Source of the DNA: Oscillospiraceae bacterium
GTDB taxonomy: Bacteria; Bacillota; Clostridia; Oscillospirales; Ruminococcaceae
Length of the DNA: 64,000 nt
NCBI GenBank assembly: GCA_009777835.1
Contig: WRKZ01000001.1
Span: forward strand, 23,696-87,695
Direction of reading: 5' to 3'
This document shows positions 19,172 through 56,453 of the stretch, piece by piece. Position 1 is the stretch's first letter. Each line of letters begins with the position of its first letter. Below the pieces are notes generated by a model. That model was not told where the DNA came from and did not search any database. It worked only from the letters and a program-made list of their open reading frames with translations. A program made the translations under genes and the position numbers.

Positions 19172-19173
19172 AA

Positions 19174-19213
19174 TAAAAAAAACAAGAGCAGCGTTCAAGC
19201 TGCTCTTGTTTTT
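19174..19213. terminator. Bidirectional terminator between convergent genes
   Basis: aacaagagcagc/gctgctcttgtt stem with A and T tracts on either side. Confidence 0.85.
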
Positions 19214-24190: not shown

Positions 24191-25220
24191 TACTCTCTTC
24201 CCCCTTAATTTGCAGTATTGCCGAATCCAACGCCGAAATCACTCGGTCGCACCATGAATCAAACTCAACGTCTTCGACCTGCAGTCCGGGATTTGCCAAT
24301 ACGTTTTCGATTGTCTCGCGAACGCCTTGGTCGAATCTTTTAGTCGGGGTGAATCCCGGTACGAGACGTTTGAGTTTTGCGTTATCGAACACCACCGAGT
24401 TAGATTTATCCCCGATTAGAGAACCGGTGAAGTCATAATCCGAGCATTTTGCCAAAAAGTCCGACGGAACGTAATACGGCTTATATTGAACGTTCAAGAC
24501 GTTTGCAATCGCCGTGTAAATTTGATTCCAGGTTAACGTCTCATCCGACGTGATTTGAACCGACTCCCCGATTGCATGAAGATTTCCCATCAATCCGATG
24601 AATCCGCCTGCAAAGTCGGAATTATGCGTCATCGTCCACAGCGAAGTACCGTCTCCGTGGACTATAACGGGTTTCCCCTCCAGCATACGCTTGACGATTT
24701 GCCACGAACCCTTCTCCCCGTGAACGCCGAGCGGTACCGAACGCTCATCATAAGTGTGGGACGGCCGAACGATGGTTACGGGAAAGTTTTCTTCTCTGTA
24801 CAGTTTGAGCAGATATTCTTCGCAAGCGATTTTATTGCGCGAGTATTCCCAGTAAGGGTTGGCAAGCGGAGTAGCCTCATTGACCCTGTAATCCGACAGC
24901 GGTTTCTGATACGCCGATGCCGAACTTATGAAAATAAACTGTTTAGTCTTGTCTTTGAACAGTCGATAATCCCTCTCCAACTGTGGCGGAACAAACGCTA
25001 TAAAATCAGCAACGGTATCAAATTGCAGGTCTGCAATTAATTCGGCGACTTTAGACTCATTGTTTATATCGGCTTTGAGTTGTTTTACGTTTTCGGGCAG
25101 CGTTGCGTTTCGATTGCCCTTGTTCAGCACGTACAATTCCCATTCGTCGGAATTAGCGAGTAATCCGGTAATCGCCATGCTGATTATACCGGTTCCGCCT
25201 ATAAATAAAGCTTTTTTCAT
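24183..25220 (-). CDS. NAD-dependent epimerase/dehydratase family (extended SDR)
   Basis: IGGTGIIS, FISSASAY, YSRNK, VRPSHTY, HGDG. Confidence 0.9.
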   Translation of the reverse strand: MKKALFIGGTGIISMAITGLLANSDEWELYVLNKGNRNATLPENVKQLKADINNESKVAELIADLQFDTVADFIAFVPPQLERDYRLFKDKTKQFIFISSASAYQKPLSDYRVNEATPLANPYWEYSRNKIACEEYLLKLYREENFPVTIVRPSHTYDERSVPLGVHGEKGSWQIVKRMLEGKPVIVHGDGTSLWTMTHNSDFAGGFIGLMGNLHAIGESVQITSDETLTWNQIYTAIANVLNVQYKPYYVPSDFLAKCSDYDFTGSLIGDKSNSVVFDNAKLKRLVPGFTPTKRFDQGVRETIENVLANPGLQVEDVEFDSWCDRVISALDSAILQIKGEESNG

Positions 25221-25304
25221 GGTTATGACTTCCTTTTTTATATTTTATTACGGCAAAGCCCTCCTTAATGTCTTAAGGAGAACTTCACAAACTTAATCAT
25301 TGCG

Positions 25305-25454
25305 GCTCTTGTTTAGCTTTCAGCCTCGTCAAGCTCACCTGCTCGACGACGAAGTTGCCGACCCGTGAGCTCTTGTTTAGCTTTCAGCTTCGTCAAGCTC
25401 ACCTGCTCGACGACGAAGTCGCCGACCCCGTGAGCTCTTGTTTAGCTTTTAGCT
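25305..25454. repeat. Repeat family A: 2.3 tandem copies of a 64-65-bp palindromic unit
   Basis: Units start at 25305, 25369 and 25434 (gctcttgtttagctttcagc..gtcaagctcacctgctcgacgacgaag..gccgaccc..gtga). Confidence 0.9.
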
Positions 25455-25719
25455 AGTTTTCAACAAAACCGCTTTCTACGAGCTTAATCAAGCCTTCGAC
25501 TGCCAACTGTTCATCGGCACCATCGGCTATAACCCTTATGGAAGAACCCCTCACGATTCCTAATGAGAGAATCCCCAACAAGCTCTTGGCGTTTACCCGC
25601 CGCTCTTCCTTTTCCACCCAGATGGATGACTTATACTCGTTTGCCTTCTGAATAAAGAACGTTGCCGGCCGCGCGTGCAAGCCAACCTGATTCTTAACGT
25701 CTACCTCTTTTACGAACAT
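25453..25719 (-). CDS. ptsH: Phosphocarrier protein HPr
   Basis: GLHARPA (His15) and VNAKSLLGILSLG (Ser46). Confidence 0.95.
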   Translation of the reverse strand: MFVKEVDVKNQVGLHARPATFFIQKANEYKSSIWVEKEERRVNAKSLLGILSLGIVRGSSIRVIADGADEQLAVEGLIKLVESGFVEN

Positions 25720-28694: not shown

Positions 28695-28739
28695 TATTAT
28701 ACTGCTTGTCGGACAAAAAATCCCTGATTTTTATTGAAA

Positions 28740-28827
28740 GTAAGGGTGTAATACCCCGCCCCTTGGGGCGGCACTCTCGCCCGCAGGGCGAGGTGTGCAG
28801 GGCTTGCCCTGCGGTGTTACCTTACAT
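28740..28827. repeat. Repeat family B (MITE/REP-like, about 87 bp), copy 1
   Basis: Highly similar to 50773-50858; internal hairpins ctcgcccgcagggcgag and cagggcttgccctg; gtaagg/ccttac ends. Confidence 0.85.
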
Positions 28828-29023: not shown

Positions 29024-30412
29024 ATGATGCGTGATATGACGAAGGGAAAACCTTTCCCGATAATAATTCGGTTTTGCATACCAATCCTGTTGGGGAGTCT
29101 GTTTCAGCAGGCGTATAACATGGTAGACGCTCTAATTGTGCGTCGCTTCGTGGGATTGGACGAGATGGGGGCGGTTCTGTCCACCGGTTCTCTGCATTTT
29201 ATGATAATCGGTGGGATTATCGGCTTGACTACGGGGTTCTCCATACCGATTTCCCGTTCATTCGGGGCGGGCGACCACGTCGAGATGCGTAAACTCGCCG
29301 CGAACGCTTTCTATCTGTGCGGATTTTTCTCGGTAATTCTTACCGCATTGACCTTGGTCTTCATTCGGCAGCTTCTTGTCTTCATGCAGACCCCCGCCGA
29401 AACGATTGAAGCGGCATACTCTTACATAATAGTGTTATTCGGCTCAATCCCCGTGATTATGGCGTATAACATACTTGTTGCCCTGCTCCGCTCATTGGGT
29501 GACAGCAAGACTCCTCTTTATTTCTTGACGGTTTCCTGCTTTTTAAACATAATCCTTGACCTGCTTTTCATAGCCGTTTTCAAATGGGGGACGGCGGGGG
29601 CGGCGTGGGCAACGGTGATTTCGACTTTTGTGGCGGTTGTCTTGTGCTTTATTCATATACGAAAGAATTTCCCGGCTTTGTATTTTGGCAAGGGTGAGTT
29701 CAAGTTTTGCCGTAAACGTTCCGCCGTATTACTGCGAAACGGCGTTCCTATGGCGTTACAGTTTTCGATTACAGCGGTGGGGAGCGTGATTATTCAGCGG
29801 GCGGTGAACAGTTTCGGTGCGATTGCGGTTTCGGCAATCGGAACGGCGGCGCGGTTGCAGATTTTCGTAATGCAACCGATGGAAGCACTCGGCTTAACAA
29901 TGGCGACCTATTGCGCACAAAACCTCGGCGCGGGAAAACTTCACCGTATAAAAAAGGGAATCCGGTTGAGCATGATTACGGTACTGATTTACAGTGTCGT
30001 CACCGGATTGCTAATCATTTTTGCGGGGCGATACCTGGCTTTCTTGATTATCGGATTAGGCGCGGGTTCGGCGGAGGAATCCGCAGGCATAGCCGAAGCG
30101 ATGGGGTATATCAAGCAGTTTCAAATCGTGAACGGCAGCTTCCATTGGCTGTTGGGGATTCTGTTTATCGTACGGAATTCGGTTCAGGGATTGGGTTACA
30201 GCAAAGTCACCATGTTAGCGGGGGTGAGTGAGCTTTTTGCGAGGGCGGCGGTGGCGTTCATGCTGGTACCGTTCTTCGGGTTTAATGCGATTTGTTTCGC
30301 GAATCCTATGGCATGGCTTGCCGCCGATATACTACTGATTATTGTGTTCTTGACTTTGATGAGGAAGTTTTCGAGAATTAATCGTCATGATTTAAAAGGT
30401 AAAATCTCATGA
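29024..30412 (+). CDS. MATE family efflux transporter
   Basis: MTKGKP..IIRF.IP.LLG.LFQQ.YN.VD, LRSLGDSKTPL, QNLGAG; about 12 TM. Confidence 0.93.
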   Translation: MMRDMTKGKPFPIIIRFCIPILLGSLFQQAYNMVDALIVRRFVGLDEMGAVLSTGSLHFMIIGGIIGLTTGFSIPISRSFGAGDHVEMRKLAANAFYLCGFFSVILTALTLVFIRQLLVFMQTPAETIEAAYSYIIVLFGSIPVIMAYNILVALLRSLGDSKTPLYFLTVSCFLNIILDLLFIAVFKWGTAGAAWATVISTFVAVVLCFIHIRKNFPALYFGKGEFKFCRKRSAVLLRNGVPMALQFSITAVGSVIIQRAVNSFGAIAVSAIGTAARLQIFVMQPMEALGLTMATYCAQNLGAGKLHRIKKGIRLSMITVLIYSVVTGLLIIFAGRYLAFLIIGLGAGSAEESAGIAEAMGYIKQFQIVNGSFHWLLGILFIVRNSVQGLGYSKVTMLAGVSELFARAAVAFMLVPFFGFNAICFANPMAWLAADILLIIVFLTLMRKFSRINRHDLKGKIS

Positions 30413-32514
30413 TTAAAAAGTGGAATGTAAAAAATTTCAAGGCTGAAATAACCAGTCCGGTGGTTGCAGGGCTGAGTCCGCTTGCGAAGGACGTTCTTGC
30501 CGCACGCTCCGTTACCGATGTGGAGTCGGCACACAACTTTTTTAATGCGGAACTGTTTCACTCGCCTTTTCTTTTGAAAGACATGGATAAAGCCGTTGAA
30601 ATCGTAAAAGAAGTGTTGGAGAACGGCGGACGAATCACCGTATACGGTGACTATGACTGTGACGGAATTACCGCTACGGTTATGCTTTACAGTTATCTCA
30701 CCGCGCTCGGCGGGGAGGTTGACTGGTACATACCTTCCCGGGGGGAAGGATACGGACTTAACGCTGCGGCAATCGAGAAAATCGCTGTGGGCGGTACAGA
30801 GTTGATTATAACCGTGGATAACGGGATTTCAGCCTTCGCGGAGGCTGAGTTAATCAAGCAAAAAGGCATCAAGCTAATCATAACTGACCATCATACCCCT
30901 TATAAAAACGGTGAATGTCTTCCGCAAGCCGATGCGATAATAAATCCGAAACAGAGGGATTGCAGTTACCCTTTCAAGGAATTAGCCGGGTGCGGCGTAG
31001 CACTCAAACTGATTTGCGCAATGGAAAACTCCGACGGGGCAGACGTAATCGAACAATACGGCGATTTAGCCGCAATCGGCACAATTGCCGATATAGTCCC
31101 CATTACAGATGAAAACCGCCAGATTGTCGCATTGGGGCTTCAACATCTCGAATACTCCGAAAATATCGGGTTGCATTGTCTTATGAAGAAGGCAGGTCTG
31201 GGAGAATCCCATATAGATTCGACTGCGTTGGCATTTATCCTCTGTCCGCGGATTAATGCGGCGGGGCGGCTTGCACATCCGGGAAAAGCGGTCGAACTCC
31301 TGCTTTGCGAGAATCATGAAATCGCCTCGGCAAAAGCCGAAGAGCTCAACGCACTTAATCGGCAACGGGTGGAAGAAGAGCGTGAAATTATTTCGCAAAT
31401 TGAGAAACTTTTGAGCGAAAACCCCCGACTTCTAAAGCAAAGGGTGTTGGTTTTATCGGGAAAAGACTGGAATCCCGGAATAATCGGGATTATCGCCTCC
31501 CGCATGGTGACACGATACGGCAAACCCTGCGTGGTAATCACTCATGAGGTGGCTTCGACGACAGCAAAAGCAGAACAAGAGCAACGGGCGGCGGCTTCGC
31601 CGTCGGCAGGTTGCTTGACGACAGCAAAAGCGAGTTGTCGCTCGGTCGGCGGATTCTCGGTTTATGAGATGTTGGCGTTCTGCGGTGATTTGTTGGTCAA
31701 TTTCGGCGGACACGCGGGTGCGGGGGGATTTTCGCTTGAAAGCGAGAAAATCGAGGCATTGACCGAACGGATTCACGAATACGCGAGAACCCGCTTCACC
31801 GTCATGCCGGAACTTGAAGTCGGGGCTGATTCAATCCCGAACGCACATGATATAAACGTCGAAAACGTTGAAAAACTAGAGATGGTTCAGCCGTTTGGCG
31901 AAGGTAATACCGTACCGATTTTCTACCTGCCGAATTGTTTAATCAAGAGCAAACGTCCGCTGAAAGAAGGCAAGTACATTTCGTTTACCGCCGAGTATCA
32001 AGGCAGAGATTTCAAGGTGCTGGACTTTTCGCGGAGTTATGCCGATTTTTGGTATAAAATCGGAGATATGGTTGACTTGATGCTCAATTTTTCGATTAAC
32101 GAATACAATGATTCTAAAGACGTGAGCATGAAGATTGTTGATATACGACTTTCGGGATTGTCGCAGGACAGATTTTTCTTGGCGAAGGCGACTTATGAAC
32201 AGGTCGTGCGGGATGAGGAAATCGACGGCAATCTGTATTCGCGGATTGTTCCGGGCGATTCCGACATGAAACGTGCCTACGACATAATCAGAAACAGCGG
32301 TTGTCTTGATGAAATCGTTCAAAGGGGCGTGAAGTCGGGAATAAACTACTGTATGCTCCGTGTGATTATCGATGTGTTTGAGGAAATGGGGCTGCTCACG
32401 TTGAATCCTGTGACAGGGGGGATTGAAATGAACAAATCAGGGACAAAAGCGGACTTAAACAAGTCTGAGGTGCTTATAAATTTAAAGCTGAAAGCGGAAA
32501 GGAGTTCTGGCTAA
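30409..32514 (+). CDS. recJ: Single-stranded DNA exonuclease RecJ, with a 20-aa repeat-derived insertion
   Basis: YGDYDCDG, ITVDNG, TDHH, GTIAD, PRINAAGR, GGHAGAGG, PFGEGN. Confidence 0.95.
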   Translation: MIKKWNVKNFKAEITSPVVAGLSPLAKDVLAARSVTDVESAHNFFNAELFHSPFLLKDMDKAVEIVKEVLENGGRITVYGDYDCDGITATVMLYSYLTALGGEVDWYIPSRGEGYGLNAAAIEKIAVGGTELIITVDNGISAFAEAELIKQKGIKLIITDHHTPYKNGECLPQADAIINPKQRDCSYPFKELAGCGVALKLICAMENSDGADVIEQYGDLAAIGTIADIVPITDENRQIVALGLQHLEYSENIGLHCLMKKAGLGESHIDSTALAFILCPRINAAGRLAHPGKAVELLLCENHEIASAKAEELNALNRQRVEEEREIISQIEKLLSENPRLLKQRVLVLSGKDWNPGIIGIIASRMVTRYGKPCVVITHEVASTTAKAEQEQRAAASPSAGCLTTAKASCRSVGGFSVYEMLAFCGDLLVNFGGHAGAGGFSLESEKIEALTERIHEYARTRFTVMPELEVGADSIPNAHDINVENVEKLEMVQPFGEGNTVPIFYLPNCLIKSKRPLKEGKYISFTAEYQGRDFKVLDFSRSYADFWYKIGDMVDLMLNFSINEYNDSKDVSMKIVDIRLSGLSQDRFFLAKATYEQVVRDEEIDGNLYSRIVPGDSDMKRAYDIIRNSGCLDEIVQRGVKSGINYCMLRVIIDVFEEMGLLTLNPVTGGIEMNKSGTKADLNKSEVLINLKLKAERSSG
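31557..31631. repeat. Repeat family A copy, in frame inside recJ
   Basis: 60-bp unit bounded by gacgacagcaaaagc (31557-71, 31617-31); aligns by eye at roughly 80% to the reverse complement of 25369-25433. Confidence 0.85.
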
Positions 32515-33474
32515 ATGAAACGTATACCTTTATTATTGTTGCTGATTTTGCTGATTACGGCAATCAGCGTAACGGGGTGCAGTAAAGTTGATGACGGGGT
32601 TCCTGAGGAAACACCTGACAGCAGTACTGAGGCAGAGACCACCGAGCCGCCGGAAGAAACGGGTGAGCCTGAACCGCAAATTCCCGAGTTGCCGCCGATG
32701 CTCCCCGATTATCTTGAGTTCTATGAAATCAATGAGGATGTGGTGGGACATTTGAGAATTGACGGAACGAAAATCAATTATCCGGTGCTTCAAGGCCCGA
32801 ACAACGACTTCTACATGGACCACAACATTTACAAGCAGGAAGATAAGATTAACGGTTCGGTTACTGCCGATTATAAGAACCGTTTCAACGGCTACGAAAT
32901 CTCCGATAATACGGTTTTGTTCGGGCATAACAATGCGGGGAATTTTCTGTCGGTGGGTCAACTGACGCGGTATTACTTCGGTGCGCTTGACGGTTCGTTG
33001 GCTTTTTACAAATCGAACCCGGTGGTGTATTTCGATACCATGTACGAAAAAATCGAGTGGAAGGTGTTTGCGGGGGTGCTGTTTAACACGCAAGATCGAT
33101 ACGGCGAACGTGTTTTCTTCTGGAATCATACCGATTTCGCTAACGAAAAAGACTTTCATGATTATATCCGAATGGTAATGGACAGGAGTCCGTTTTTCAC
33201 CGATGTTGATATCGAATACGGCGACCAAATTCTCTCGCTTATGACGTGTTATTACCCCGGTCCCGATGTCGATGCGCGGTGGGTGGTGTTCGCACGGCGG
33301 GTTCGTCCCGGGGAGAGTAACGAGGTCGATACAAGCAAAGCTATTTTTAACCGCGATTATTTCCGTTTTGGAAAGAGTTCCGGCGAAAGTACCTGGGACA
33401 CGTCTTATTTGAAGAGTCTTTCGGGTGAATCGGGTGAGTTGCCGCCGGTCGGCAAATGGAGGAAGTATGAATAG
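32515..33474 (+). CDS. srtB: Class B sortase with a lipoprotein signal
   Basis: Lipobox VTGC; INYPVLQGPNNDFY, LFGHN (His), LSLMTCY (Cys), RWVVFAR (Arg). Confidence 0.9.
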   Translation: MKRIPLLLLLILLITAISVTGCSKVDDGVPEETPDSSTEAETTEPPEETGEPEPQIPELPPMLPDYLEFYEINEDVVGHLRIDGTKINYPVLQGPNNDFYMDHNIYKQEDKINGSVTADYKNRFNGYEISDNTVLFGHNNAGNFLSVGQLTRYYFGALDGSLAFYKSNPVVYFDTMYEKIEWKVFAGVLFNTQDRYGERVFFWNHTDFANEKDFHDYIRMVMDRSPFFTDVDIEYGDQILSLMTCYYPGPDVDARWVVFARRVRPGESNEVDTSKAIFNRDYFRFGKSSGESTWDTSYLKSLSGESGELPPVGKWRKYE

Positions 33475-35800
33475 TAATCAAAACAGTGAGCCCGAAGGCA
33501 AAATTGCGGGCAAAACCGATGGTGATTTTAACGAAAAAGATTTTTCGGAAGATTTTTCAAAAGAAGCGTTGTGGGAGCGGATTCTGACGAAAGCCAGGAG
33601 TACCGAAAAAAAATACGATGAGGTGAAACTCCAAAAAGCGTACGAAGTCTCGTTCGAGGCGCATGACGGGGTTCGACGTAAAAGCGGTGAGCCGTATATC
33701 GTTCACCCGGTTGAAGTCGCCGAAATCCTCCTTGAACTCTGTATGGACACCGATACAATCGCGGCTTCGCTGTTGCATGATGTTGTGGAGGACAATAATA
33801 TCATGTTCCCGCTTTCGGATATACGGCGGCGATTCGGTGATGATATTGCGAACCTGGTTGACGGGGTCACGAAAATCGGGTTTGTTACCGCTAAATCGGG
33901 GGAGAATATTCAACAGCAGATTCATGCCTCTACTGCGGAAGAACGTAAGAACGAAAATGTGCGCAAAATCTTGATTTCCATGTGTAACGATACGCGGGTT
34001 TTCATTATAAAACTCGCCGACCGCCTGCATAATATGAGAACGCTCGGTGCGTTTCGTGTTGAGAAGCAAAAGAGAATCGCACTCGAAAGTATGAGCTTTT
34101 ACGCACCTATTGCCCATCGTCTCGGAATCGCGCATATGAAAGACGAACTGGAAGACCGTTCGTTATATTATCTCGATAATTTCGCTTATAAAGAAATCGT
34201 AGACACGCTGGAACGCCATAAACTCAACTGCGGTGATTTTATTGAGCAAATCAAGTCGAAAATTCAAGAGCGACTCAGAGGTGTGCCGTTTCCCTCCGAA
34301 ATCGAGGGCAGGGTCAAAGGGATTTACAGTCTTTACAAGAAAATGTACGCAACGGGGAAAACCATTGATGAGATTTATGACGTTTATGCGGTCAGGGTTA
34401 TAATTGAATCGCCGAAATCTCCCGACTGTTATACCGTAATGGGCGAAGTCCATGATATGTACAAACCTATTCCCATGACTTACAAGGACTACATCGCTTC
34501 ACCGAAATTAAACGGATACCAGTCCCTTCATACCACCGTTTTGGGAAGAGAGCGGATTCCCTTTGAAGTGCAGATTCGTACCCGGGATATGCACAATACC
34601 GCACGATACGGGGTTGCGGCACATTGGCGGTACAAGAGCGGAACTTTCGCGCCTAAACAGCACGAAAACAAGTTCGATTATATCAGACAGCTTCTGGAAC
34701 AGCAACAACAGTCAGACGATGTTGACAGCCTTTCCAACGCCATTAAGACCGACCTTTCACCCGACGAAGTCCATCCCATGACCCCGAAAGGTGAGTCTAA
34801 GACCCTCCCGAAAGGTTCTACCGTGGTTGACTTTGCGTATCTGATTCATACACAGGTCGGCAATAAGATGATTGGTGCGAAAATCCGCGGGAAACAGGTC
34901 AGTTTCGACCATGCACTCGAAACCGGTGATGTTGTTGAAATTATCACGTCGGACTCGCCGAACCACGGGCCTACACGTTCGTGGTTGGATTATGCGAAAA
35001 CAAGTCACGCACGCGCAAAGATTCAGAGTTGGCTTAAGAGCATACGCCGACCCGAAAATATTTCGTCGGGGCGGGCTTTAATCGACAGCGTACTCCGTCG
35101 GGATAACATCAAAGCCGACGATGAATCGCTGGATTTGTTGGCTAAACGGCACAAATTCAACTCGCTGGAAGCGTTGTGTGCGGCAATCGGTTACGGTGGG
35201 GTCAAAACCACCGATGTGACCGACTGGATTCAAAAAGAACTGGGCAAAAAACCCGAAATCTTTTCGCCGCCTACCCGGGAAGAATTACAGGAACAAATCG
35301 AGCAGACCCGCAAGAAGAAACAGTCGGGCGGGGTGAGCGTTAAGGGAATCGATGATTGTCGGACACGATTCGCGAGTTGTTGTAATCCACTCCCCGGCGA
35401 TGATATAATCGGATTTGTTACGCGGGGTTACGGTGTTTCCATTCACAAGAGGGATTGCACGAACATTACGGCGAGAATGGATTCACAAGAGGGCAAAGAA
35501 CGTTTAATCGAAGCCGAATGGGCAGAAACCGAAAATGAATCCTATTGCGTTACCATTGAAATAATCGGGGTTGACAGGAAAGGGCTTCTCATGGACATTA
35601 TCGCCTGCGTTTCGTCCAACCATATCCCGATAATCTCTAATAATTCCCGAACGCTCAAAAACGGAAACGCATTCATCAGTTTGACGTTCAGCATTACCGG
35701 GATGGAACAACTGAACAAACTCATAGCGCGGCTCAACAAGGTCGCAGGGGTGATTAGCGTAGAAAGGACGGGTAATAGGGGTGAAAATAACAAGTCTTAA
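33467..35800 (+). CDS. relA: Bifunctional (p)ppGpp synthetase/hydrolase Rel
   Basis: RKSGEPYIVHP, LLHDVVED, KLADRLHNMRTL, GRVK, YQSLHT, EVQIRT, TGS domain, CCNPLPGD, ACT domain. Confidence 0.96.
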   Translation: MNSNQNSEPEGKIAGKTDGDFNEKDFSEDFSKEALWERILTKARSTEKKYDEVKLQKAYEVSFEAHDGVRRKSGEPYIVHPVEVAEILLELCMDTDTIAASLLHDVVEDNNIMFPLSDIRRRFGDDIANLVDGVTKIGFVTAKSGENIQQQIHASTAEERKNENVRKILISMCNDTRVFIIKLADRLHNMRTLGAFRVEKQKRIALESMSFYAPIAHRLGIAHMKDELEDRSLYYLDNFAYKEIVDTLERHKLNCGDFIEQIKSKIQERLRGVPFPSEIEGRVKGIYSLYKKMYATGKTIDEIYDVYAVRVIIESPKSPDCYTVMGEVHDMYKPIPMTYKDYIASPKLNGYQSLHTTVLGRERIPFEVQIRTRDMHNTARYGVAAHWRYKSGTFAPKQHENKFDYIRQLLEQQQQSDDVDSLSNAIKTDLSPDEVHPMTPKGESKTLPKGSTVVDFAYLIHTQVGNKMIGAKIRGKQVSFDHALETGDVVEIITSDSPNHGPTRSWLDYAKTSHARAKIQSWLKSIRRPENISSGRALIDSVLRRDNIKADDESLDLLAKRHKFNSLEALCAAIGYGGVKTTDVTDWIQKELGKKPEIFSPPTREELQEQIEQTRKKKQSGGVSVKGIDDCRTRFASCCNPLPGDDIIGFVTRGYGVSIHKRDCTNITARMDSQEGKERLIEAEWAETENESYCVTIEIIGVDRKGLLMDIIACVSSNHIPIISNNSRTLKNGNAFISLTFSITGMEQLNKLIARLNKVAGVISVERTGNRGENNKS

Positions 35801-44783: not shown

Positions 44784-45015
44784 AGAATGGGGGATTCTCC
44801 CCCAAACCCCCTGTCGCTTCGCAGGGAAACCCTGCTTCGCTCCCTAAAGAATGGGGCTTCGCCCCAAACCCCCTCACCTGCGGAGGCAGAGCCGCCTTGG
44901 TTCCCTAAAGAATGGGGGATTCTCCCCCAAACCCCCTGTCGCTTCGCAGGGAAACCCTGCTTCGCTCCCTAAAGAATGGGGGCTTCGCCCCAAACCCCCT
45001 GTCGCTTCGCTCCCT
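44784..45015. repeat. Repeat family C: BIME-like mosaic of four palindromic units
   Basis: Units of 64, 61, 64 and about 43 bp at 44784, 44848, 44909 and 44973, each agaatgggg-hairpin-cccaaaccccct; units 1 and 3 identical. Confidence 0.92.
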
Positions 45016-48600: not shown

Positions 48601-49493
48601 GATTCGTATTGAATTTCTCGGTAGTCAGCGAAAACTACGCAATCGAAGGATACTCCTTCGCAGAAGGCTCACTCGTGATTCTTCCCGGCGAAGTTGGCGA
48701 ATTCGGACTTGACATTGAACTGTTCGTATCGGCAGAACTCCTCGGCGAACTTGACGCAGCAGACATCAATCTGTACTATGTTTCCGGCGCGACTGTTTCT
48801 CTCATCAAAGACGGCGTTGAAGTCGTAGTTGAAGCTTGTGAAGAAGCAGAAGAAGACGAAGAGCATGATTGCGAAGAAGAAGAATGTGAACTCGCTGTTC
48901 TCGGCGTAAAAGTCGTACTCAGCAAAGCAAGCTTCTACGTACTCGCTGACGCTGCTCCTCAAGTAGAAGGTGACGTAACTGATACTACCACTTCTGACAC
49001 CGAAACCGAACCGACCGAAACCGAACCGACCGAAACCGAAACTTCGGCAACTGAAACCGAAACTTCGGGAACCGACACTTCCGTAAGCACTACTTCGGGA
49101 ACCGACACTTCCGTAAGCACTACTTCGGGAACTTCCGGAAGCAATGACGTTAACACTTCGGACACTTCGGACACTTCGGACACTTCCGGAACTGCTACTT
49201 CTGTAAGCGAATCCGATACTGAAGCTACTTCGGAAACTTCTGAAATTATTGAAGAAGGCTACAAAGTAGGTGACGTTAACGGTGACGAACAGATTACGAT
49301 TGCTGACGCACTCGAAATTCTGAAGTACTTGGCGAAAATGACGAGTACCCTCGACACAGAAGAAGGTCTTGAAGCGGGAAGAATCCTCGGCGCAACCGTA
49401 CCGGGAATCGGCGATGTTCTTGAAATCCTCAAATACCTCGCGAAAATGAACAACGCACTCGTTGATAATCACGATTGGGCACCCAGGGCGTAA
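45675..49493 (+). CDS. Large acidic secreted dockerin protein, candidate S-layer/major surface protein
   Basis: Signal peptide; duplicated ~370-aa unit; Ala/Ser insert; beta-rich domain ending ASFYVL; T/S/E linker; C-terminal GDVNGDEQITIADALEILKYLAKM dockerin. Confidence 0.8.
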   Translation: MRKRRLLAILVTVSMVLSLFTMFTSASDAVRDTVTREWGYVNEYEYEIDVKVDFGGNVAFAVGDKVNLSAVDADSFVAEKADSSPKAFTVSGAKISGNNRTQEIATDSFGWEVFTVVGTANDRITAGSRSSLTFTLVGKFEADLYNGTYEVDDIQIVDDFFAQLVLGESPEEEEIDFVYAEDDDGIDEIIFVTDVRATATKVALEDVVDNGSDFIGNSDLGLYGDYGDGIFTLKMKGIEWDEAPFIFGADAVVLDLDFVGRNLGNSGNSDPNYDLLVWTDIFELANADDNGDFDIEEFIDEVVRVRIPKPANANANLGTLSAELPVDYLYCESDDDGYEQVEEIYFAVVNRVAKKDDTWATVVIEDVLGEDTPDSAENQLFGATLTIEGEYLLIGVPEGEGEVTRSYGYVNEYEYEIDVKIDFGGEVFFAVSDAVELDGGFNAAVAEELATLEATMAVETAAYDAASASEETVTSVMTSASTDESSARTAATSASNAAADASASLVSESVAGNNTSAFSSAYASALVDVASAEAAVASASSAYSSASVASDSLDVAMTSASTAYDNASSSASSIEDEADRVFVVAADEDENEFELTVSAVRISGNSRMQPADNTDQLGSADAREKGFEWDVASAVGTRNDRLTAGNRSYLTFTLIGNFDLDLYNDGFDVDSIKIAEGFLATIIFDEDSSETPFKYNKNVNGIDDIISVSAVRKTGEKVALDDVVLSKASNTNNAGAFDLTDGVTTLELGRILFNEAPFIFGAESIVLDLEFTERNLKNFNTGDDNYDLLVWTDLFEDENTEEGDTFDVMDFLGDVVRFRIPRPSNANTNLGVLSVELPAEFFSNADFKRASKIYFAVINRVVGENDTFVDVVIEDVVDGTDNALWGASLTIEGEAIRPTVPVKENYVIDDISEKIGEDGKVDLAELIAEIGANYDKVILSEEGLLALEEDLTVVVAEGIEYTILVDSIDEDAIAEGFVLNFSVVSENYAIEGYSFAEGSLVILPGEVGEFGLDIELFVSAELLGELDAADINLYYVSGATVSLIKDGVEVVVEACEEAEEDEEHDCEEEECELAVLGVKVVLSKASFYVLADAAPQVEGDVTDTTTSDTETEPTETEPTETETSATETETSGTDTSVSTTSGTDTSVSTTSGTSGSNDVNTSDTSDTSDTSGTATSVSESDTEATSETSEIIEEGYKVGDVNGDEQITIADALEILKYLAKMTSTLDTEEGLEAGRILGATVPGIGDVLEILKYLAKMNNALVDNHDWAPRA
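49000..49200 (+). repeat. Nested short tandem repeats encoding the Thr/Ser/Glu linker
   Basis: 30-bp unit at 49062 and 49092; gaaaccgaaccgacc x2; acttcggac repeats. Confidence 0.85.
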
Positions 49494-49609: not shown

Positions 49610-50326
49610 ATGAAAAAAATGGTAAAACTCATGTCAATAATCGTAGCTATCGCTATGATTGCTTCTCTCGCAGTTAGCGCATCCGCTTCTGCAGGCACTC
49701 CGAACACTGCCGGAGAAAAAGGAATCGTATTCGGTTTCGTAAACAATGACCCGACTAAGTTGGCACTTATCGTTCCGGACGGCGGAACTACCGGTATTGC
49801 CGGTTGGGGATTCGTTGACATCAAAATCGTTCCTCCTGCAGGCGGAACCATCAATGCACGTCCGTCAGCTGCTGACGAAGACCTTGACATCACTAACACC
49901 CCCGGTTCCAGCGTAGTTGAAGGCACCTACGGCGGCGGCGTTGTATTCCCTGAATTTTTTGCAGGCGGATTCGTTGTTGCAACTTGGAACGTAACCGGAA
50001 CCGGCGACTTCGTAATCACCGGTGACTACACTTATGACCCTGAAGGCGCTGATAATGAAGATTTCACATTGAACCTTACCGTAAGCAACGTATTCGGAAG
50101 CACCGAAACTACCGTTGCAACTCAAGAAACCGCTGCACCTACCGAAACAACTGAAGGCGGAACTGAAGAAGGAACTCAAGCAACTGCAGCTCCTACCGCA
50201 GCTCCTACCGCTGCTGCTACCACCACTTCGGGAACCACTCCTAAAGGCGGCGTAGCTCTCGCAATCATTCCTACTTTGGCAGCTGCCGGCGCAGCAGTCT
50301 TCGCAGCTTCCAGAAAAAGGAAGTAA
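49610..50326 (+). CDS. Sortase-signal surface protein with a ~135-aa beta domain (candidate cohesin/anchoring scaffoldin)
   Basis: Signal peptide, beta-strand domain, T/A/E linker, TPKGG-hydrophobic-RKRK tail; the cohesin call is a loose pattern match only. Confidence 0.65.
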   Translation: MKKMVKLMSIIVAIAMIASLAVSASASAGTPNTAGEKGIVFGFVNNDPTKLALIVPDGGTTGIAGWGFVDIKIVPPAGGTINARPSAADEDLDITNTPGSSVVEGTYGGGVVFPEFFAGGFVVATWNVTGTGDFVITGDYTYDPEGADNEDFTLNLTVSNVFGSTETTVATQETAAPTETTEGGTEEGTQATAAPTAAPTAAATTTSGTTPKGGVALAIIPTLAAAGAAVFAASRKRK

Positions 50327-50442
50327 GACTAACCTAATGTCAAGGCTTTGACATTGCAAACAGGTAATATGCGGGCGGTAGATTAGCTCTGCTGCCCGCT
50401 TTTACAACTAAAATTAGAGGGAAAATCTGGAGGAATACTAAC

Positions 50443-50718
50443 ATGAAATTGAGAAAAGTTTCTTCACTCGTGATTGCTATCGCTATGGCGGCTACTATGG
50501 CTGCAGCAGCAAGTGCGAGCGAAAACGAAACCGAAACCACTGCTGAAGAAACCACCGCTGCAACTGCTGCTACGACTGCAGCAACTACTGCCGGTGGAAC
50601 TGTTGCAGGTGGGGACAAAGACGGCGACCTCAAAACAGGTGTCGGCGGCGTGGCTATCCTCGGTGGAGTCGCTGTTATGGCGGCAGGTGCCGTTATAGTC
50701 GCGAAAAAGAGAAAGTAA
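50443..50718 (+). CDS. Minimal sortase-signal protein (Thr/Ala/Glu-rich mature peptide of about 40 aa)
   Basis: SD ggagg; signal peptide; DLKTG-hydrophobic-KKRK tail. Confidence 0.82.
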   Translation: MKLRKVSSLVIAIAMAATMAAAASASENETETTAEETTAATAATTAATTAGGTVAGGDKDGDLKTGVGGVAILGGVAVMAAGAVIVAKKRK

Positions 50719-50733
50719 TCGCATCACGCGATG

Positions 50734-50768
50734 AACGACGCCGGGATTTTTCCGGCGTCGTTTTATTG
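50734..50768 (+). terminator. Intrinsic terminator closing the surface-protein operon
   Basis: aacgacgccgg/ccggcgtcgtt stem followed by ttatt. Confidence 0.8.
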
Positions 50769-50772
50769 AAGA

Positions 50773-50858
50773 TAAGGGTGTAATACCCGCCCATTGGGGC
50801 AGTTCTCTCGCCCGTAGGGCGAGGGGTGCAGGGCTTGCCCTGCGGTGTTAGCTTACAT
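50773..50858. repeat. Repeat family B, copy 2
   Basis: Highly similar to 28741-28827. Confidence 0.85.
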
Positions 50859-51868: not shown

Positions 51869-52834
51869 GTGAGGAATCAAATGAGGAAATTTATAGCAAG
51901 TATTACAGCGGGATTAATTTCCGTGCTGTTTTTGACGACGATTGCAAGCGCAATTCAGTTTAGCCCTGAAAACAAAGACATCGAAATCGTGTATGGCGAA
52001 TTCACCGGATACAGATTCAACGGGCCGGAAGCCCCGGTTGGGGTGAACACCTCACAAATCGCGAAGGTGAAGTTCTATATCAAATGCCCCGACTTAGAGA
52101 CAATCGAAGAAGCGGTCGTGCAACTTGTATTCAATTCGGGGAGTACCGGTTGGGTCGAAACCGAACATGATTTGAACGACGGACTAATCGTCGAAGTGGA
52201 GGTTGACGGTGTAGTCGAAGGTGATTTCTTCGATGCGGCGTTGGGAACCTGGAACGAAGAAGTTTGGGGAACGTTCTCGGTAGAATTGCTCAACTCGGCA
52301 GGAGGAGTCATCGGAACGCCGGTTTACCCCGACAATGAACCCGAAGTCACCGAGACCGAACCGGAATTCACCACGTCGGAACTTATGAAAGACGGAGTGA
52401 ACACCGAAGAAACGAGTGAAGAAATGACCGAAGAAATGACCGAAGAATCCATCGAGGAAACCATGCCTGAATTTACCGAACATGAAACCACCGAGACTCA
52501 TCACGAAATGACCGAACCGGAAGAAACAGTCGCCCCTAAAGACGGGACTTTCGCCCCGGTGACTACCACCATGTTCGAGACTGTAGCGGGCGCGCAAGAC
52601 AACGAAACCAACACCACCGAGACCGTTACGGAAACCATGAGCGAAGAAGAAGTCACCACCGTCCCGACCACCGAGGCAACGACAGCAGAGACTTCGCCTC
52701 ACAGCTCCGCGGCAATTCAAGGCGGAAATGAAACCGCGCCCAAGACCGGCAGTACGCATATCGCGACTGCGATTATCATCACGACACTTTCGGCAGTGAC
52801 AATCGCGACAACACGTAAGAAGAGGAATCCTTAG
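51869..52834 (+). CDS. Sortase-signal surface protein with a related CBM-like domain and a long T/E stalk
   Basis: Signal peptide; FNSGSTGWVETEH; Glu/Thr-rich stalk; APKTG-hydrophobic-RKKR tail. Confidence 0.8.
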   Translation: MRNQMRKFIASITAGLISVLFLTTIASAIQFSPENKDIEIVYGEFTGYRFNGPEAPVGVNTSQIAKVKFYIKCPDLETIEEAVVQLVFNSGSTGWVETEHDLNDGLIVEVEVDGVVEGDFFDAALGTWNEEVWGTFSVELLNSAGGVIGTPVYPDNEPEVTETEPEFTTSELMKDGVNTEETSEEMTEEMTEESIEETMPEFTEHETTETHHEMTEPEETVAPKDGTFAPVTTTMFETVAGAQDNETNTTETVTETMSEEEVTTVPTTEATTAETSPHSSAAIQGGNETAPKTGSTHIATAIIITTLSAVTIATTRKKRNP

Positions 52835-52845
52835 GAATCATAACA

Positions 52846-52878
52846 AAAACAAGAGCCGCAATCAGCGGCTCTTGTTTT
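52846..52878. terminator. Bidirectional terminator
   Basis: aaaacaagagccgc/gcggctcttgtttt. Confidence 0.85.
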
Positions 52879-52886
52879 CGTTACGC

Positions 52887-54025: not shown

Positions 54026-54532
54026 TCACGCTTCGTCCGTCTTGAATTCCCCCGTGATTAATATTTCGTCTCCAACCTCCCTCTGAATGATTCGAAATGA
54101 CTCCCTGAGCCGCTCAATTTCTTCTTCATTCTCCTCATCCCCTTCCTTTGTGAGTACAACCCTAATTTCATTAATAGATATGCTGTACTTGTCTGAAATA
54201 TTAACGTTTACCGAAATTTGTCGTACGAAAATTTCTTCCTCGGCTAATATCCGGGTGAGTTGGTGGCTTATTTCCTTCTCGACTGCATGGGATTGCGCTT
54301 TGTTGTATTCCTCTTCGAAGTTGATGTACGGAATGTTGTCGAACAGCCCGTCGGTTTCAAATTCCGATGCGAAGTTGACCCGCCCGCTCGTGAAAAAGAA
54401 AGCGAATCCTGCAAGGAAAAAGCATGAGACCATGAAATCTGTCTGCTTTTTGGCAGAGCCTTCCGGCAATAACATTTTGAACAGGCTTAATGCAATCGCC
54501 ATTAAGCATACGTTTAGAAGAATTTCCCTCAT
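54026..54532 (-). CDS. spoIIIAF: Stage III sporulation protein AF
   Basis: Two N-terminal TM with MLLPEG; operon position. Confidence 0.75.
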   Translation of the reverse strand: MREILLNVCLMAIALSLFKMLLPEGSAKKQTDFMVSCFFLAGFAFFFTSGRVNFASEFETDGLFDNIPYINFEEEYNKAQSHAVEKEISHQLTRILAEEEIFVRQISVNVNISDKYSISINEIRVVLTKEGDEENEEEIERLRESFRIIQREVGDEILITGEFKTDEA

Positions 54533-54594
54533 TGTTATGACCATGCCTTTCCGCCACAAAGTGGCATGAATTCAAACCTGTCAAGCTCACCTGC
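54530..54594 (-). repeat. Shared leader element plus family A fragment ahead of spoIIIAF
   Basis: 64/65 identical to 56451-56515, including the start codon. Confidence 0.92.
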
Positions 54595-54619
54595 CGGCGG
54601 CTTGACGAAGCAAGCCCTG

Positions 54620-56255: not shown

Positions 56256-56453
56256 TCAAGCAAACCCGAACACATTCTTAATCGTGTCGAACAGTACGCC
56301 GATTTCCTTTATAATCATCAGCAGAACCACCACTAATCCGGCTATACTGACCATCATTGCCTGTTCATTACGCTCCGACTGTTTAAGTAATTGCGAAAGT
56401 ACCGCCACGATGATTCCCACCCCGGCAATCTGAAAAATCAAGTCCAGTTCCAT
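56256..56453 (-). CDS. spoIIIAC: Stage III sporulation protein AC
   Basis: MELDLIFQIAGVGIIVAVLSQLLKQSER.EQA. Confidence 0.93.
   Translation of the reverse strand: MELDLIFQIAGVGIIVAVLSQLLKQSERNEQAMMVSIAGLVVVLLMIIKEIGVLFDTIKNVFGFA

Follow-up and report, generated by a model that had tools for sequence, protein, structure and literature searches.

The recJ gene occupies positions 30409-32514 on the forward strand of the window (the whole stretch of DNA analysed here, 64,000 nucleotides long) and encodes a protein of 701 amino acids, as defined by the list of open reading frames, Pfam and homologs. Pfam divided RecJ into DHH, DHHA1 (residues 344-460) and RecJ_OB domains, and all columns that are invariant across 56 RecJ sequences were retained in the window protein. 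The open reading frame reads ...ITHEVAS TTAKA EQEQRAAASPSAGCL TTAKA SCRS..., and gacgacagcaaaagc is present twice, at 31557-31571 and 31617-31631. Alignment of the 59 best homologs with MAFFT showed 27 residues between the “KPCVVIT” strand and “AKGSxRS” in the window RecJ, compared with 4-7 in orthologs. Only one of these homologs, P0019, had a homologous insert at this site; an 11-residue extension in P0058 is unrelated to it. The empty site was read at the DNA level in the nearest clade members L074, L075 and L076, and the nearest RecJ available was 65-70% identical with the window protein. The preliminary description had placed 20 extra residues just before the conserved xSxRS motif. Site and insert agreed with our alignment, but the excess over orthologs is about 23 residues, made up of a 60-nt unit and about 9 nt just upstream (31546-31559).

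The insert site lies between two DHHA1 strands, directly before the invariant S409/R411. The AF2 model of RecJ had a mean pLDDT of 92.3, with the insert (about residues 381-400) at 54-58, and placed the insert between strands 374-379 and 405-411. By this model, the insert lengthens a surface loop by about 20 residues.

An element body lies between two perfect direct repeats of 12-15 nt, all on the forward strand. The upstream repeat gacGACAGCAAAAGC (31557-31571) encodes (S)TTAK(A), and the unambiguous part of the duplication is 12 nt (31560-31571). The element body, AGA followed by ACAAGAGC ... GCAGGT ... GCTTGAC (31572-31619), was identified with pattern match, covariance model and fold, and translates in frame as (A)EQEQRAAASPSAGCL(T). 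The downstream repeat, again gacGACAGCAAAAGC (31617-31631), encodes the native TTAK(A) preceding S409/R411. The outer helix pairs 31579-31585 with 31610-31616, and the inner helix pairs 31589-31595 with 31599-31605 and is closed by a UUC loop; the sense strand folds with -24.3 kcal/mol, compared with -16.9 kcal/mol for the antisense strand. Local alignment extended past the upstream repeat into GAGGTGGCTTCGAC (31546-31559, forward strand). Apart from one extra base, this stretch is like the 3' end of family members (GCAGGTGGCTTGAC, as in loci L059 and L064), and it coincides with about three extra residues (EVAS); by resemblance, it could be left over from an older or tandem copy.

The 60-nt unit was also said to be similar to the reverse complement of an intergenic tandem unit at 25369-25433. 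Because MAFFT aligned the raw recJ and intergenic segments poorly, we used local alignment instead. The recJ unit scored 66 against the reverse complement of the array, and the 500 shuffled controls scored 14.9±2.5 with a maximum of 30, which puts the alignment about 21 standard deviations above the shuffles. The similarity was thus confirmed, but the array extends over 25305-25454 (reverse strand; 2.3 units of 64 nt, TRF score 272). Its full units at 25390-25449 and 25326-25384 matched the covariance model with 75.7 and 67.7 bits. The recJ copy scored 69 bits (E about 1.5e-12), a value that is partly circular because this copy was among the 20 training sequences. The loop length at this site varies among orthologs (P0011, P0014, P0058), as would be expected if the extra residues were a native lineage-specific loop with a chance or compositional resemblance to the array. 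But the distance of about 21 standard deviations from the shuffles, the covariance model E of about 1e-12 (low partly by construction, with the copy in the training set) and the presence of both helices and both conserved ends in the recJ copy leave this idea with practically no probability, and we regard it as refuted by the shuffles, the pattern match and the covariance model.

The array begins at the stop codon of ptsH (HPr), upstream of an epimerase gene (neighbours assigned by Pfam), and is co-oriented with both. Besides the copies in the preliminary description, we identified a third full copy and a partial copy in the window. The third is a solo copy between spoIIIAB and spoIIIAC (56499-56558, reverse strand; 54.8 bits with the covariance model), co-oriented with the spoIIIA operon and with GTTTGAAT on both flanks. 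The partial, rearranged copy (54580-54619, reverse strand) was found by sequence reading directly after the spoIIIAE stop codon and was missed by the covariance model at E<=1; its 3' end (GCAGGTGAGCTTGAC) and the following 50 nt match 56451-56515 with 98% identity. The spoIIIA operon was recognized by Pfam, and the nearest RecJ and PstA homologs belong to named Oscillospiraceae MAGs, so the assignment to a clostridial lineage fits.

A metagenome scan revealed 17 further copies in other organisms, and with a hairpin-agnostic pattern all of the metagenome loci found (16/16) were true family members. The family is widespread in these related metagenomic organisms, where most copies are intergenic. 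Its consensus is AAAGCnAAACAAGAGCnACnGTGTCGGCGGCTTCGCCGnCGAGCAGGTnGCTTGACGA. The element body of about 45-50 nt has an A-rich 5' end (wAAACAAGAGC), two helices of 7-8 bp each with an internal loop between them, a 3-nt loop, and the 3' end GCAGGT-N-GCTTGAC. In the family alignment 98.3% of cells pair and compensatory changes occur in eight pairs; none of 500 shuffles reached the observed values. The outer helix, AAGAGCNAC with GTNGCTT, pairs in all cells (100%) and forms terminal inverted repeats. An attC-like reading was rejected because the would-be core positions covary and are not conserved. A scan of GTDB with the hairpin-core pattern CGGCRRCTTCGYCGTYG-GCAGGT was also abandoned. It gave 56 single matches, none of them in Clostridia and none from relatives of the window organism; apart from a few unclassified records they came from non-clostridial, mostly GC-rich lineages, and we take them as chance hits of a GC-rich pattern.

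The hairpin is strand-specific. G-U/U-G pairs number 20 and A-C/C-A pairs two, and the copies fold with -24 to -31 kcal/mol in sense and -17 to -21 kcal/mol in antisense. In at least 18 of 24 loci the repeat has the orientation of the adjacent genes, and a typical copy, single or tandem, stands after a stop codon and before the next ribosome-binding site. Tandem periods outside coding DNA include 64 nt (the window array) and about 54 nt (L066/L071). Neither terminator nor promoter was found in the scan of the ptsH array (terminators on both strands of 25150-25550), where the sense 3' flank reads GACGAAGC..., and a terminator-like repeat (e.g. SPRITE) on the antisense strand was dropped as there is no hairpin with a T-run at this array. 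Rfam reported only two tRNAs in the whole window at the gathering threshold, and nothing relevant in 25200-25500 at E<=10.

These features could also be read as those of a mainly selected RNA module, an intercistronic stabiliser or processing hairpin, whose spread reflects a function in mRNA and whose recJ copy might tune translation or decay. The structure is specific to the transcribed strand, where it is rich in G-U pairs, the orientation and the placement between stop codon and ribosome-binding site are as such a module would have them, and transcription should read through the copies because no U-tract or terminator was called. However, coding insertions with target duplications and tandem arrays indicate mobile DNA, and the orientation bias could also come from a strand-asymmetric purine-rich target. 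As the main explanation we consider RNA selection unlikely; it is compatible with insertion, and the two are not mutually exclusive.

Five of 17 solo copies stand between direct repeats of 8 nt or more, compared with 1.7% under the null, and these repeats measure 8, 8, 9, 11 and 12 nt. Three to five variable bases stand at the junctions beside the duplications, and clear duplications are absent from most intergenic copies. A single transposase would not usually give duplications of variable length with variable bases at the junctions. A search of the window and 18 loci for a transposase or a longer parent element sharing the same ends gave only the tandem array itself, and the viral contigs contained no copy.

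At least four further copies seem to be in frame: in PstA (L059), in a second RecJ (L001) and in the open reading frames of L058 and L064. The PstA permease of L059 carries a 20-residue insert, and its 93%-identical ortholog P0121 is without it. In L058 and L064 the copies stand in N-terminal regions flanked by duplications; their insertion in frame is suggested by the reading of the open reading frames and the flanking repeats. The coding inserts measure 60, 60, 60, 63 and 69 nt. The preliminary description had compared the recJ segment with Rickettsia palindromic elements and supposed that a palindromic intergenic repeat also enters genes in frame; this interpretation is therefore supported by the further in-frame copies, the family and the ortholog comparison, beside the shuffled controls.

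The RecJ of L001 has its insert at the same codon as the window RecJ, and the two proteins belong to different clades. One ancient insertion in their common ancestor, followed by precise losses elsewhere through direct-repeat recombination, would account for the coincidence of position (within 1 nt), for the unusual 5' junction CAGAA and the AGCAAC/GTTGCT outer stem common to both copies, and for the gain of 23 residues over 4-residue loops in both. But other members of both clades are without the insert, and because the two RecJ proteins lie in separate, otherwise insert-free clades, the insert would have to be lost precisely and independently at least about seven times. Each genome has perfect flanking repeats (12-15 and 11 nt), but these differ between the genomes (8/11 match by eye), the 3' half of the element is read in two frames (GCLTT in the window recJ, ELLDRD in L001), and the two recJ copies are the least similar pair of the family, with 63% identity. 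So we judge a single ancient insertion quite improbable.

Because its relatives are all MAGs, the window probably comes from a metagenome assembly, and a repeat that was collapsed or chimerically joined in assembly or binning could produce a false insert. The insert, however, keeps the reading frame exactly and has native recJ codons perfectly duplicated at its two ends. An artefact is also at odds with the difference between the recJ copy and every other copy in the window (76-80% identical) and with independent assemblies in which a second recJ and a pstA show this type of event. We hold it to be very improbable.

The recJ segment thus very probably arose when a single copy of a small non-autonomous mobile repeat recently inserted in frame. 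The element would insert at purine-rich ...AAAG sites and leave a target duplication of 8-12 nt, and in recJ it is the native T-A-K codons that are duplicated. The length added in total is a multiple of three, no stop codon occurs in the sense frame xAA-CAA-GAG...GCA-GGT-xGC-TTG-ACG, and the insert sits in a length-variable turn between two DHHA1 beta strands, so that recJ remains open. RecJ is probably still functional with the extra flexible loop. As part of the host mRNA, intergenic copies would be transcribed, and their sense strand could fold into a stable hairpin that may act on the mRNA. Mobility may follow a DNA transposition-like (MITE-like) mechanism. A less probable route, to which we give little weight, is an RNA-mediated, SINE-like or otherwise single-strand-mediated element in place of a cut-and-paste MITE. 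The strand-specific structure on the transcribed strand, the co-transcription with host genes and the AAAG targets would suit such a route, and duplications of 8-12 nt with a few untemplated-looking junction bases may recall target-primed insertion. If it is true, the repeated insertion into recJ, which encodes a 5'-3' ssDNA exonuclease, might be non-neutral, and an ssDNA intermediate of the element might interplay with RecJ.

Our literature search turned up reviews on RPEs, MITEs and REPs but nothing describing this family, which has no Rfam match either. RPEs are palindromic repeats found in intergenic regions and in frame in unrelated housekeeping genes, to whose products they add a peptide at positions compatible with the protein fold (PMC10969869). 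The present element is like them in its occurrence in recJ (twice), pstA and two N-terminal regions and in its one stop-free frame. But the RPEs of Rickettsia measure about 100-150 bp and encode a peptide that is conserved, whereas our element has about 45-50 nt, occurs in Oscillospiraceae-like Clostridia, and encodes a peptide that varies with the covarying hairpin and whose 3' half is readable in two frames. It further differs in its flanking target duplications and its almost constant co-orientation with host genes. By these described features the element acts like an RPE without belonging to the RPE family.

In-frame fusions are also formed by MITEs, with intragenic ERIC, BOX and cyanobacterial MITEs as examples (PMC10969869). 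Like them, the element is small and non-autonomous, its ends are complementary in inverted orientation (the outer helix), direct repeats flank it, copies can be tandem or clustered, and it occasionally inserts in frame within genes. But it is much shorter than typical MITEs, its duplications of 8-12 nt are variable and accompanied by extra junction bases, and its orientation to genes is near-invariant. REP/BIME elements are GTAG- or CGTC-tagged palindromes (PMC3733652). The element is similar to these as GC-rich hairpins of 20-50 nt after genes within operons, transcribed with the host mRNA and occasionally in tandem or inverted pairs (L066, L071). However, the consensus AAAGCnAAACAAGAGCnACnGTGTCGGCGGCTTCGCCGnCGAGCAGGTnGCTTGACGA does not contain the GTAG/CGTC tag, copies occur inside coding sequences, and there are target duplications. 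We rejected a REP-like reading because no GTAG or CGTC tag is conserved and the location is not strictly extragenic.

Colonisation of housekeeping genes by in-frame palindromic repeats is best known from Rickettsia and is often viewed as a peculiarity of reduced intracellular genomes. Here a far smaller element has had the same outcome in free-living, spore-forming gut Clostridia. Before/after pairs are available, namely pstA with and without the insert at 93% identity and two independent insertions at one recJ codon. They offer a system for asking how proteins tolerate selfish DNA, how targets are chosen and whether strand-specific RNA or ssDNA structure drives mobility. In practice, inserts of this kind can disturb gene calling, the alignment of orthologs and quality checks on MAGs in work with Oscillospiraceae. 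Without the insert, the recJ site would be expected to read ...GACAGCAAAAGCGAGT..., and the predicted tryptic peptides of the insert are AEQEQR and AAASPSAGCLTTAK.

The recJ ORF (30409-32514, plus strand) was full-length, encoding 701 amino acids with DHH, DHHA1 (residues 344-460) and RecJ_OB domains. The preliminary description proposed that RecJ has extra residues before the xSxRS motif, and alignment with the 59 best matches confirmed that they are real: 27 residues separate the 'KPCVVIT' strand from the 'AKGSxRS' motif in the window, against 4-7 in the orthologs. The insert directly precedes the invariant S409 and R411, and the protein around it reads ...VVITHEVAS-TTAKA-EQEQRAAASPSAGCL-TTAKA-SCRS.... 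At the DNA level it is bordered by two occurrences of the 15-mer gacgacagcaaaagc (31557-31571 and 31617-31631, plus strand), which are 60 nt apart. Among the 59 matches, a comparable insert was present in P0019 only, while P0058 had an unrelated 11-residue extension nearby. In a search of 5.8 billion proteins the best identity to any relative was 65% by BLASTP, or at most 70% when conserved columns of the alignment were compared; the named relatives were MAGs of Oscillospiraceae. Gene order MatE - RecJ - (sortase) - RelA/SpoT is kept between window 29024-35800 and three RecJ relatives with empty sites (loci L074, L075 and L076). The two nearest relatives (P0002 and P0004) and P0019 all came from one JGI sample, 3300038395. 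Just upstream of the direct repeat, 31546-31559 (GAGGTGGCTTCGAC) resembles the element 3' end GCAGGTGGCTTGAC plus one base; it may be left over from a previous or tandem copy, and would then explain 3 of the 23 additional residues.

The AlphaFold2 model of the window RecJ (56 sequences) had mean pLDDT 92.3 and pTM 0.90. The pLDDT was 54-58 over about residues 381-400, between DHHA1 strands 374-379 and 405-411. The solved RecJ structure 8Y30 aligned through this region with a gap at the insert position, the loop at the site is naturally variable in length among orthologs, and all columns invariant across 56 RecJ sequences were intact in the window RecJ. We infer that the insert is probably a tolerated surface excursion.

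The kinship of the recJ unit with the reverse complement of an intergenic array, also proposed before, was borne out: local alignment of the reverse-complemented recJ segment with the ptsH array scored 66, against 14.9 +/- 2.5 in 500 shuffles (maximum 30). This array (25305-25454, minus strand; 64-nt unit repeated 2.3 times, Tandem Repeats Finder score 272) lies between ptsH, encoding HPr, and an epimerase gene. Both genes are on the minus strand like the array itself, so the array and the recJ copy have the same orientation relative to transcription. A third full copy (56499-56558, minus strand) lies co-oriented between spoIIIAB and spoIIIAC, and downstream of the spoIIIAE stop codon there is a partial, rearranged copy. 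Segments 54530-54594 and 56451-56515, 65 nt and 98% identical, each combine the element 3' end, about 50 nt holding a putative ribosome-binding site as well as a small hairpin, and a gene start encoding MVITM; these starts belong to spoIIIAC and to the gene after spoIIIAE. A translation-start region seems to have moved from one intercistronic site of the spoIIIA operon to another, carried by the element or by a composite that includes it.

A pattern of the conserved ends only (ACAAGAGC N20-32 GCAGGT N1-2 GCTTGAC) gave three matches in the window and none in shuffles. In JGI metagenome contigs it gave 17 copies at 16 loci from five metagenomes, all evident family members. A covariance model scanned over the window and 17 loci found only four copies within the window (recJ, two array units and 56499-56558); beyond it, the model found the copy in L001, the locus of P0019, several extra copies in loci L066 and L071, inverted pairs included, and a diverged intergenic copy in L076. 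L076 is part of a MAG with accession WRJN01, which lies inside the WQRH-WRNX series from higher-termite guts (PMC7024585). The element loci had G+C contents of 37%-50% and no other DNA in common with the window, which means that the family spans several organisms. No Rfam family matched the element, no copy was found in viral contigs, a GTDB genome scan with a GC-rich hairpin pattern gave chance matches only, and no description of the family was found in Rfam or the literature searched. At L066 8673-8812 and L071 2891-3079 the copies stand as head-to-head inverted pairs between genes, a BIME-like arrangement.

Alignment of 20 copies showed a structure of two helices with 8 pairs each. Standard pairs filled 98.3% of helix cells, with compensatory changes in 8 helix pairs (40 cells); none of 500 shuffles reached these values, and slid controls fell to 27-44% pairing. 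The structure is strand-specific: G-U/U-G pairs outnumbered A-C/C-A pairs 20 to 2, and folding energies were -24 to -31 kcal/mol for sense strands and -17 to -21 kcal/mol for their complements. For at least 18 of 24 loci, the copy either lies within a sense-strand gene or has one close by, ending no more than about 45 nt upstream or starting just downstream. Typically, a stop codon (..TAAGCTAA|ACAAGAGC) flanks the copy on one side, and a Shine-Dalgarno sequence with ATG on the other. No solo copy among the 24 loci was clearly antisense to its neighbours, the ambiguous cases being inverted pairs. Stop-free frame-copies were more frequent in antisense (52/60) than in sense (36/60), so stop codons do not account for the sense orientation of every coding copy.

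Coding insertion was recurrent. The PstA permease of locus L059 reads MEVISKKD-KQEPQGGASLQAGGLTKKE-SINY..., whereas the segment is missing from P0121, a 93%-identical ortholog with MTISKKD-SINY..., and from 20 more orthologs. In loci L058 and L064 the copy appears to fall in the N-terminal part of an ORF, ahead of a signal or transmembrane segment, and L001 encodes the second RecJ, with its insert at the same position as in the window. L062, with the element 3 codons into an ORF of uncertain start, may be a further case. All coding copies share the 5' frame xAA-CAA-GAG, but the 3' half of L001 is read in another frame (ELLDRD, against GCLTT in the window), so the nucleic acid and not the peptide is conserved. 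By manual count, coding inserts were 60, 60, 60, 63 and 69 nt long, whereas the tandem copies between genes have, among others, periods of 64 nt (window array) and about 54 nt (L066/L071); copies in coding sequence survive only when in frame. Of 17 solo copies, 5 had direct repeats of at least 8 nt at their borders; the rate in a null of mismatched flanks was 1.7% (P ~1e-5, our own binomial estimate). These five are exactly the coding copies, with repeats GACAGCAAAAGC, CGTAGCCAAAG, GAAAAAGGT, AAAAAAGA and GAAGAAAG, and their targets are purine-rich with AAAG at the end.

The two recJ inserts could go back to a single old event, but only if the insert was later lost precisely about seven times. 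In the neighbour-joining tree the window RecJ grouped with P0002, P0004 and P0008, and P0019 with P0018, P0020 and P0021; all six of these relatives lack the insert. Their empty sites read ...GCC/GCA/GCT AAA/AAG GG.... Each insert stands between perfectly duplicated codons of its own lineage. A CAGAA junction is common to both copies. They are the least similar pair in the family (63%). The own-lineage duplications, the low copy similarity and the insert-free clade relatives make two independent insertions within 1 nt of the same position much more likely. We suspect a more specific target, about YAGC-N-AAAAG, which recurs at the pstA site and the ptsH stop codon; together with a permissive loop, it could account for double insertion at one position of recJ.

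The family is structured, reaches new sites with target duplication, and forms tandem arrays and inverted pairs. It would be mobilised in trans by an enzyme; no parent element was found in the window and 18 loci. The strict co-orientation and the strand-specific hairpin, rich in G-U pairs, could come from a purine-rich target of asymmetric sequence, from an intermediate of single-stranded DNA or RNA, or from selection acting on the mRNA. An unusual mechanism of mobility is improbable. A process like that of Rickettsia palindromic elements (RPEs) had been proposed for this clostridial lineage: recurrent in-frame insertion (recJ, PstA, L001, L058/L064) agrees with it, and the element is like RPEs in mode of action (PMC10969869), but it differs from them in size and has no conserved peptide. 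Among bacterial MITEs a minority produce in-frame fusions (PMC10969869), and the element acts like these too, but its correspondence to MITEs is only partial, given its variable duplication length and the lack of a known parent IS. REPs carry a GTAG or CGTC tag (PMC3733652), which is absent here.

The window genome carries several small hairpin-repeat families. One repeat, about 100 nt long and with three GC hairpins, is found at 28729-28827 and 50761-50858 (about 90% identical), one copy adjoining two tRNA genes. It was also present in L059 (2303-2399, 7428-7469) at 94% identity; L059 belongs to a different organism (G+C 43% vs 47.5%). The repeat is far more conserved between the two than coding genes, had no Rfam match, and could be a second element, either mobile or a functional RNA. 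At 44784-45010 an unrelated tandem array (63-nt unit, 3.6 copies) with several GC hairpins (GGGGGATTCTCCCCC, CAGGGAAACCCTG) appears to lie in an intergenic spacer. Perfect hairpins AAAACAAGAGCCGC-loop-GCGGCTCTTGTTTT at 52840-52880 and 19173-19211 look like bidirectional terminators, and AAACAAGAGC(CGCAA) is common to them, the element 5' end and the distal end of the ptsH array (25300-25314). Short tandem repeats in frame, of period 6-30 nt (ACCGAA, ACTTCGG... types), are numerous at 48990-49250, 50150-50610 and 52330-52460, the last inside an ORF rich in Thr, Glu and Pro (51869-52834) whose terminal tail resembles a membrane anchor.
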